This document shows, piece after piece, positions 10,201 through 13,200 of a stretch of DNA of 64,000 nt (its first letter is position 1; every line of letters starts with the position of its first letter). The stretch is taken from NCBI RefSeq assembly GCF_022846255.1, contig NZ_AP025682.1, one strand, 5' to 3'. This DNA is from Escherichia coli (GTDB taxonomy: Bacteria > Pseudomonadota > Gammaproteobacteria > Enterobacterales > Enterobacteriaceae). Made by a program: the position numbers.

Positions 10201-13200
10201 GCGACTGATCACCAGAACGGTAAAACTCCACGATAAAAACGACAGTACGTGGCTGGCAATAAACACCACAAACAGGCAGATCAGTAATTTGCGGCGTTCA
10301 ACCTGGCTGGTCATTAACATAAACGGCAATGACATTAGCGCCACTACCCATGCATAAATTGTCAACATGATGCCGACCTGAGCGGTTTGCATGTGAAAAC
10401 TATGCGCAATGTCAGAGAGCAGGCCAACAGGGACAAATTCGGTGGTATTGAAGATAAAGGCGGCGACTGCCAGCGTAACGACCCGTAGCCACGCTACTTT
10501 GCGGGAAACAGTGTTTGTTGTCATAACAGATTATCGGGTGAGTTGCGAAAAAGTGATGAAATGATCTTAAAACGGTTAATGATGTGAATACAATGCATTT
10601 GTGATCTGGATCGCATTTCCATCTCTCTGACGGTTGTTCTGTCACGCATCAGAGAGTTGTTAACATCACATTTTAATGACGATCAGGAAGGGGGCCTGTT
10701 CTTCTTTTACTTGAGGTGCAATATTACGAACGGGAAAATCATCAGGAAGAGATATGTAATTGCTGATGCTTACTGGCGTAACCATATTTGCCCCATATAG
10801 TCATAAGTCATCGGAACATCACTATATAGAGCATATTAGCCGTATGAACTATCAAAAATAGCTCATTGGTAACCCTGTTTTGCCGAGTCAGGCGCATCCA
10901 GCAGTTGAATAAATGCCTCAAGCGGACGCGTTTTCGCACCACGACGCCAGACCAGCCAGGTTGTTAACCAACGCCATTGCTCAGCTAACGGCCACGCTTC
11001 AACCTGGTGATGCCCCGGCATACTTTCCAGCATTGAGCGTGGAATAAGCGCAATGCCTGCTCCTGCGACCACACAGGCCAACATCCCGTGATAAGACTCC
11101 ATCTCGTGAATAGTTCCCGGAGCGGCACCGTCAGCATGAAACCAGCTTTCGAAGTGGCGACGATACGAACAATTGGCGCGGAAGGCATAAATGTTACTGC
11201 CATTCACCTGACTGGCACGGGTTACTGGCGCATGTCCTTGTGGCGTGACGATCATCAGTTCCTCGCGGTATACCGGTATCCCGTCAATGGCAGTATGGTT
11301 AATGGGCCCATCAATAAATGCCGCATTCAGTTTTCCCTCCAGCACACCTTCCAGCATAGTGCCGGAAGGGCCGGTGGAAAGTGAAAACTGAATTTTGGGA
11401 TAACGACGGTTAAATTCCGCCAGCGTGGCCGGAATGCGCACTGCAGCGGTGCTTTCCAGCGATCCCAGAGAAAATAAACCTTGCGGCTCATCGCCAGCGA
11501 CAACGCTCCGCGCTTCATCCACTAACGTGAGAATTTGTTGGCTATAGCGTAAAAAGTTATGCCCGGCAGGCGAGAGACGTAAACGCTGATTCTCGCGAAT
11601 AAACAGATCAACCCCTAGTTCTGTTTCCAGCTGACGTAGACGGGTAGTGAGATTCGACGGCACGCGATGCACTTTTGCTGCAGCCTGGGTAATGCTGCCA
11701 GCTTCGGCAACCGCGTTGAACATCTCCAGTTGGGTCAGATCCATAACATTCTCGATTCGTGAATAAGTGGCTTAATATTATTCATTTTAAAGCAAGAGTA
11801 AATCTGCGTATCTTCATACCATGACTCATAAAGGAGATACCCCGATGACCATTACTCCGGCAACTCATGCAATTTCGATAAATCCTGCCACCGGTGAACA
11901 ACTTTCTGTGCTGCCGTGGGCTGATGTTGACGATATCGAAAACGCGCTTCAGCTGGCGGCAGCAGGCTTTCGCGACTGGCGCGAGACAAATATAGATTAT
12001 CGTGCTGAAAAACTGCGTGATATCGGTAAGGCTCTGCGCGCCCGTAGCGAAGAAATGGCGCAAATGATCACCCGTGAAATGGGCAAACCAATCAACCAGG
12101 CGCGCGCTGAAGTGGCGAAATCGGCGAATTTGTGTGACTGGTATGCAGAACATGGTCCGGCAATGCTGAAGGCAGAACCTACGCTGGTGGAAAATCAGCA
12201 GGCGGTTATTGAGTATCGACCGTTGGGGACGATTCTGGCGATTATGCCGTGGAATTTTCCGTTATGGCAGGTGATGCGTGGCGCTGTTCCCATCATTCTT
12301 GCTGGTAACGGCTACTTACTTAAACATGCGCCGAATGTGATGGGCTGTGCACAGCTCATTGCCCAGGTGTTTAAAGATGCGGGTATCCCACAAGGCGTAT
12401 ATGGCTGGCTGAATGCCGACAACGACGGTGTCAGTCAGATGATTAAAGACTCGCGCATTGCTGCTGTCACAGTGACCGGAAGTGTTCGTGCTGGAGCGGC
12501 TATTGGCGCACAGGCTGGAGCGGCACTGAAAAAATGCGTACTGGAACTGGGTGGTTCGGATCCGTTTATTGTGCTTAACGATGCCGATCTGGAACTGGCG
12601 GTGAAAGCGGCGGTAGCCGGACGTTATCAGAATACCGGACAGGTTTGTGCAGCGGCAAAACGCTTTATCATCGAAGAGGGAATTGCTTCGGCATTTACCG
12701 AACGTTTTGTGGCAGCTGCGGCAGCCTTGAAAATGGGCGATCCCCGTGATGAAGAGAACGCTCTCGGACCAATGGCTCGTTTTGATTTACGTGATGAGCT
12801 GCATCATCAGGTGGAAAAAACACTGGCGCAGGGTGCGCGTTTGTTACTGGGAGGGGAAAAGATTGCTGGGGCAGGTAACTACTATCCGCCAACGGTTCTG
12901 GCGAATGTTACCCCAGAAATGACCGCGTTTCGGGAAGAAATGTTTGGCCCCGTTGCGGCAATCACCATTGCGAAAGATGCAGAACATGCGCTGGAACTGG
13001 CTAATGATAGTGAGTTCGGCCTTTCAGCGACCATTTTCACCACCGACGAAACACAGGCCAGACAGATGGCGGCACGTCTGGAATGCGGTGGGGTGTTTAT
13101 CAATGGTTATTGTGCCAGCGATGCGCGAGTCGCCTTTGGTGGCGTTAAGAAGAGTGGCTTTGGTCGTGAGCTTTCCCATTTCGGCTTACACGAATTCTGT

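Follow-up and report, generated by a model that had tools for sequence, protein, structure and literature searches.

The protein YneK of Escherichia coli, 371 amino acids (aa) long in K-12, was described in published surveys as a taxonomically restricted orphan (PMC12757027; PMC11540155), and its gene was associated with adherence in bovine isolates (PMC11540155). In strain MG1655, yneK (b1527, 1116 bp) is located between ptrR (b1526) and ydeA (b1528); the distance between these two neighbours is 1342 bp, and it is the same in a K-12 derivative (L002). The closest described counterpart of the locus considered here is a 102-bp partial yneK pseudogene, which was annotated by the NCBI Prokaryotic Genome Annotation Pipeline (PGAP) and RefSeq as 'incomplete; missing C-terminus' in the strains CFT073 (C_RS29250) and Combat2C1 (BWI82_RS02015). 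Here, the ydeA-ptrR interval was analysed in a stretch of 64,000 nucleotides (nt) from the E. coli assembly GCF_022846255.1 (contig NZ_AP025682.1), referred to below as the window, in which only 338 bp separate the two genes. Almost certainly, an old internal deletion inactivated yneK and left this gap as its scar; the deletion had one origin and was inherited by a large clade. The scar allele is lineage-wide; it is an ordinary remnant of gene loss and has already been annotated as a pseudogene.

The gap and the parts of yneK that are recognizable within it are listed here in window coordinates.

10525-10862: gap between ydeA and ptrR, 338 bp, the yneK deletion scar; the K-12 counterpart is 1342 bp long and holds yneK.
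10701-10785, minus strand: yneK 5' stub, with the ATG at 10783-10785 and 28 native codons plus one further base; 96% identical to K-12 L002 2906-2990.
10692-10700, minus strand: nine-base island GGGCCTGTT between the 47-bp and 956-bp deletions; K-12 has AGGCCTGTT (L002 1941-1949, yneK codons 348-350).
10673-10691, minus strand: yneK 3' stub, made up of the stop codon (10673-10675), the five codons before it and one extra base, in a different frame from the 5' stub.
10666-10785, minus strand: remnant open reading frame (ORF) of 39 codons, in which 28 YneK codons run into a frameshifted tail, EQAPFLIVIKM, and a stop codon.

An earlier sequence-only reading of the window had stated that K-12 carries a gene of ~370 aa between yneJ (the former name of ptrR) and ydeA, and this was right. 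The alignment with K-12 that it had proposed returned an interval of 1342 bp with yneK inside, not a gene-free one of ~340 bp. When positions 10400-11000 were used as the query, BLASTN gave two collinear blocks, in which window 10400-10691 matched L002 1601-1893 with 93.5% identity and window 10701-11000 matched L002 2906-3205 with 96% identity. Between these blocks, 9 bp stand in place of 1012 K-12 bp, which amounts to a net loss of 1003 bp inside yneK. When four intact E. coli alleles and that of Escherichia albertii were aligned with the window, the loss resolved into two gaps of 47 and 956 columns; relative to intact yneK, codons 351-366 (47 bp) and 29-347 (956 bp) are missing. The translation of the 5' stub, MVTPVSISNYISLPDDFPVRNIAPQVKE, equals residues 1-28 of K-12 YneK without any difference. 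The 3' stub aligns to L002 1875-1893 and is identical to the 3' end of a divergent but intact yneK in strain 2017-02-2CC. The island GGGCCTGTT was aligned by MAFFT with the same interior motif in K-12 and three other E. coli alleles, and it is taken as real yneK interior because, by an analytic estimate, chance alone would give only ~0.015 exact 8-mer matches in the 1012 deleted bases.

As 1003 cannot be divided by three, the frame that starts at the retained ATG runs into a new one ending at 10666, and with the remainder frameshifted no YneK protein can be made. At the locus, the intact frame of ~371 codons is absent and the 39-codon ORF alone was found, for which no Pfam match was obtained. 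The stub occupies the place of the gene in K-12, between ptrR and ydeA and co-directional with both, and the two spacers (77 bp between ptrR and yneK, 149 bp between yneK and ydeA) are intact. Compared with K-12 yneK, the position, the strand, the upstream spacer, the first 28 residues and a hairpin after the stop codon are the same, whereas the window is without the two blocks of codons given above and the rest is frameshifted. The absence of yneK, as the sequence-only reading had put it, therefore holds for the 1003 lost bp and for any full ORF, but the start with its 28 codons, three codons of the interior and the final five persist, and in genomes with this allele PGAP calls the 5' stub a partial pseudogene. 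Its statement that the gap contains no ORF needs a similar amendment: an ORF scan of the window found only ORFs of 30-77 codons overlapping the 338 bp, and the one at 10666-10785 on the minus strand is the yneK 5' stub.

The length of 338 bp had been given exactly; it follows from the ORF ends of ydeA and ptrR. Both of these genes are intact because the deletion spared their flanks, and their names agree with the annotation of the equivalent genes in Combat2C1, the K-12 derivative and CFT073. The genes around the gap are as follows.

9334-10524, minus strand: ydeA (sotB), sugar efflux transporter of the major facilitator superfamily, 396 aa, intact; NF002921 equivalog, E 2e-200, residues 1-395.
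10863-11744, minus strand: ptrR (formerly yneJ), LysR-type regulator of putrescine utilisation, 293 aa, intact; NF047711 equivalog, E 1.3e-147.
8644-9309, plus strand: marC, outer neighbour.
11821-13233, plus strand: sad, outer neighbour.

As to how the scar was formed, internal losses of 47 and 956 bp inactivated yneK and left nine interior bases between them. They did not touch the start of yneK and the spacer between it and ptrR, nor the conserved hairpin that follows the stop codon, nor the region upstream of ydeA. The 47-bp gap is bordered by an imperfect direct repeat, GGAAGG/GGAACG, which is clearest in the divergent intact allele of strain 2017-02-2CC and suggests slippage as the possible origin of this smaller loss. 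No microhomology was found at the 956-bp gap in a base-by-base comparison with K-12. Another direct repeat, ATCAGGAAG (10682-10690 and 10741-10749), was considered as a recombination substrate and rejected, as both copies are kept with 50 bp between them.

The deletion had been proposed to be strain-specific, and this proposal failed. A 121-bp probe across the junction was covered over at least 80% of its length in 1115 of the 5426 complete E. coli genomes (~20%), with 1039 records matching at an identity of at least 99%; in the remaining matches, the right half of the probe alone was covered, among the matches listed. At least 80% of the K-12 yneK interval is held by 4233 of these genomes. 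The same interval, used as a query, placed 1116 records in an identity band of 90-95%, and the 338-bp span was seen among the matches listed. With a 2.5-kb ydeA-ptrR query, 1045 records matched in one piece at 99% identity or more, which ties the scar to one flanking haplotype; a single event passed on within a clade would produce this pattern. The gap is identical at 338/338 positions in CFT073 and Combat2C1, which share the stub as well and show no difference at the locus; the window and CFT073 are nevertheless different strains, with 99.3% identity over 15 kb. The locus thus has the features of a CFT073-type yneK pseudogene remnant, namely a retained N-terminal coding part, a lost C-terminal part and a syntenic site. 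The long form is present in K-12, O157:H7, O103:H2 12009 and one strain of sequence type 69 (ST69). CFT073 belongs to phylogroup B2, and because it is in the scar clade, this clade would probably be phylogroup B2.

YneK is an orphan confined to Escherichia and Shigella. Among 5.8 billion clusters, its relatives were found in E. coli, Shigella and E. albertii only, and when 1.84 billion representatives were searched exhaustively with HMMER, the only matches were fragments of YneK itself. In Pfam, no family was assigned to YneK, DUF1140 being matched below threshold only; a profile search of the PDB sequences gave no meaningful relative (best E 0.63). An AlphaFold2 model based on an alignment of 7 sequences was too poor to use, with a mean predicted local distance difference test (pLDDT) of 50 and a predicted template modelling score (pTM) of 0.43. 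The ratio of nonsynonymous to synonymous substitution rates (dN/dS) was 0.15-0.17 for yneK, versus 0.01-0.04 for ydeA and 0.05-0.07 for ptrR. Where it is kept, yneK is a real gene, with dN/dS well below 1, and it is three- to ten-fold more relaxed than its neighbours.

Independent lesions of yneK were found in several other strains, including an insertion of the insertion sequence (IS) element IS1 (BUCT2930; H71), IS1 together with the loss of the 5' part (23CRST050), an in-frame deletion of 192 bp (XH993), a truncated form of 258 aa in Shigella sonnei and, in the E. albertii type strain NBRC 107761, a nonsense codon at position 86. These lesions resemble the window allele in that the same gene is inactivated or shortened, but they are rare and differ in their breakpoints and mechanisms, whereas the window allele contains no IS, is marked by a complex junction with two gaps and occurs in ~20% of genomes.

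Several further observations on the gene and its relatives are recorded here. In E. albertii NBRC 107761, yneK (3001-4116) and marC (5490-5795) both look degraded; the latter is an ORF of 101 codons that matches residues 1-96 of the 221-aa E. coli protein. The intact yneK of strain 2017-02-2CC (1629-2744) is rare and deeply divergent, occurring in 19 of the 5426 genomes with 84% amino-acid identity to K-12; its dS against K-12 is 0.58, and that of the adjacent ydeA is 0.21. The locus looks mosaic or recombinant, as the 3' end of this yneK is identical to window 10660-10691. In singleton predicted proteins (P0002, P0006, P0019 and P0007), a LysR helix-turn-helix domain, or in one case a MarR domain, is fused to most of YneK, which implies that single strains carry additional rare deletions or rearrangements by which ptrR or marR was joined to yneK. 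A contig deposited as 'MAG: Caldithrix sp. isolate CR04bin15' (SMXE01000224.1) carries sad-ptrR-yneK-ydeA-marC with 98-100% amino-acid identity to E. coli K-12; almost certainly, this is contaminating E. coli DNA that ended up in the bin of a Caldithrix metagenome-assembled genome (MAG).

The polarity of the change is a loss. In E. albertii NBRC 107761, the genes are ordered sad-ptrR-yneK-ydeA-marC as in E. coli, and the yneK homologue spans residues 1-371 with 68% amino-acid identity; the cluster of E. albertii-type YneK proteins (380 aa) has 224 members. One outgroup species thus holds the gene at the same locus, and in the window the missing segment lies between remnants of both gene ends (10701-10785 and 10673-10691, plus the island at 10692-10700). 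For these two reasons the 338-bp form is derived. The opposite order of events, in which an ancestral short form gained yneK in K-12-like lineages, by insertion or by de novo origin, finds some support in the restricted distribution of YneK, as a protein with no homologue outside Escherichia and Shigella and with no Pfam family points to a young gene that must have arisen within the genus. It is still highly improbable: the full-length syntenic homologue is present in E. albertii, which is an outgroup to all E. coli; an insertion does not predict the remnants, that is, the start with 28 codons, the three interior codons and the last five codons with the stop; and the long form occurs on several diverged haplotypes, the short form on one. 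A transfer of yneK from E. coli to E. albertii, which could reconcile the ancestral short form with the outgroup, is disfavoured by the 68% amino-acid identity and a dS of ~1.2. An error of assembly or sequencing in this one genome can practically be dismissed as the source of the short gap, being refuted by the same junction in 1115 independent complete genomes and by the identity of all 338 bp in CFT073 and Combat2C1.

No observation speaks against the deletion as such, but its reading as a single, old and inherited event has some weak points. The outgroup is E. albertii only, and the pattern search needs exact 8-residue words, which is perhaps why other Escherichia species were not seen. 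The phylogroup of the scar clade is deduced from the inclusion of CFT073. The 47-bp and 956-bp losses could be one event or two, and the GGGCCTGTT island may be filler DNA that resembles the yneK interior by chance, which an analytic estimate makes very improbable. Furthermore, the loss of yneK would have been neutral or nearly neutral, but this neutrality is assumed, and a dN/dS of 0.15 denotes purifying selection on intact yneK where it is kept.

The remaining features of the interval lie in its two spacers.

10623-10656: inverted repeat or hairpin, with arms at 10623-10630 (ctctctga) and 10649-10656 (tcagagag) and a loop of 18 nt.
10561-10588, minus strand: weak sigma-70-like match upstream of ydeA, TTCACA-16-GATCAT, 9/12 matches; a prediction only.
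10786-10862, minus strand: ptrR-yneK spacer, 77 bp, aligned to K-12 free of gaps; it holds the presumed yneK promoter, with sigma-70-like TTCATA-16-TATAGT at 10848-10821.

The 8-bp inverted repeat between yneK and ydeA had been noticed in the sequence-only reading, and it does exist, although with a loop of 18 rather than 19 nt and a span of 10623-10656 rather than 10624-10658. Taken alone, it is not beyond chance: when the 338 bp were shuffled 2000 times with dinucleotides preserved, 313 of the shuffled sequences (16%) contained a perfect inverted repeat with arms of 8 bp or more and a loop of 3-30. The repeat is credible because its arms are conserved while the loop varies: in six sequences (the window, four other E. 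coli alleles and E. albertii), variable columns made up 1/18 of the arms, 9/15 of the loop and 17/25 of the stretch just downstream. The arms are perfect over 10 bp in K-12 (TCTCTGACGC/GCGTCAGAGA) and measure 9 bp in E. albertii. Folding of the minus-strand RNA gave -18.6 kcal/mol (z = -4.1) for the window and -27.1 kcal/mol (z = -6.3) for K-12; the sole change in the arms, G to A at 10648, is found in the deletion allele, at the cost of one C-G pair. The hairpin starts 17 nt past the stop codon of yneK, and the ATG of ydeA follows ~100 nt downstream of it. It resembles a Rho-independent terminator in that a stable stem-loop follows a stop codon at this distance and is encoded on the transcribed yneK strand, but it differs in the absence of a U-run (no T-run follows the stem on either strand), in a loop of 12-18 nt rather than 3-8 and in the result of a consensus scan, which called 0 terminator-like sites. 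No Rfam match was obtained at E <= 1 for 10300-11000 on either strand.

Judged from these features, the best guess is a putative 3'-end or insulating hairpin of the yneK transcript, a tentative assignment for which a putative protein operator upstream of ydeA is the main alternative and a somewhat less probable one. That the repeat is a chance palindrome without function is rather unlikely; the frequency of equal repeats in the shuffles and the lack of a T-run and of an Rfam match would fit it, but the arms stay conserved from E. coli to E. albertii while the loop and the downstream spacer vary, and neither the perfect 10-bp arms of K-12 nor the fold z-scores of -4.1 to -6.3 agree with it. Within the ptrR-yneK spacer, a 19-nt imperfect inverted repeat with 79% complementarity (ATTTGCCCCATATAGTCAT / ATCACTATATAGAGCATAT, at 10786-10836) overlaps the predicted yneK -10 box and could be an operator or a 3' structure of ptrR. 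Upstream of ydeA, the predicted sigma-70-like match at 10561-10588 falls in the well-conserved part of the spacer next to ydeA; the conserved region also contains three GATC (Dam) sites (10595-10615 and 10563-10566), two of which are 3 bp apart (GATCTGGATC).

Apart from simple decay, the persistence of the deletion might be explained by a rewiring of regulation, in which the yneK promoter was brought within ~260 bp of ydeA and would supply it with extra nitrogen- or PtrR-responsive transcription, with the G to A change at 10648 weakening the intervening hairpin and favouring read-through. In K-12, a peak of in vitro NtrC binding was reported in the yneJ-yneK spacer by genomic systematic evolution of ligands by exponential enrichment (SELEX) (PMC8743547), and yneK was up 2.8 log2 in a ptrR deletion mutant (PMC9068703). 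These two reports count in favour of the rewiring, together with the intact yneK promoter region, start codon and ptrR-yneK spacer, the lack of a T-run terminator between the stub and ydeA, and the location of the only substitution in the hairpin arms in the deletion allele, where the fold drops from -27.1 to -18.6 kcal/mol. It is improbable all the same. The expression of yneK in K-12 is very weak, with a base mean of 14 (PMC9068703), and its rise in the ptrR mutant may have come from polarity of the deletion construct; moreover, K-12 already has yneK and ydeA in the same direction with only 149 bp between them, and read-through would be nothing new. The repeated independent lesions of yneK also fit simple decay better. 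Slightly more doubtful still is the specific form of this proposal, that in the CFT073-type clade the retained yneK promoter would act as an extra upstream promoter of ydeA, that the substitution at 10648 would ease read-through and that sugar efflux would become coupled to nitrogen or putrescine status.

Farther from the gap, a CFT073-type gene cluster occupies window ~1100-7300, between eamA and marB (e.g., the ORF at 5818-7287, plus strand). It encodes a GntR regulator, the IIB, IIC and IIA components of a phosphotransferase system (PTS), a carbohydrate porin and a 6-phospho-beta-glucosidase. In MG1655, eamA directly follows marB, and the cluster in the window is an accessory sugar-utilisation island beside the mar locus.

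If the rewiring were true, sugar efflux would be tied to nitrogen or putrescine status in an extraintestinal-pathogen lineage. Read as an inherited deletion, the locus is a clean case of the lineage-wide loss of a taxonomically restricted gene, with little wider importance. The length of the ptrR-ydeA interval, 338 or 1342 bp, could serve as a presence/absence marker of the CFT073-type clade. The scar also explains the status of yneK as an accessory gene in pan-genome association studies, and the adherence association reported for bovine isolates (PMC11540155) may reflect phylogroup structure and not the function of YneK.

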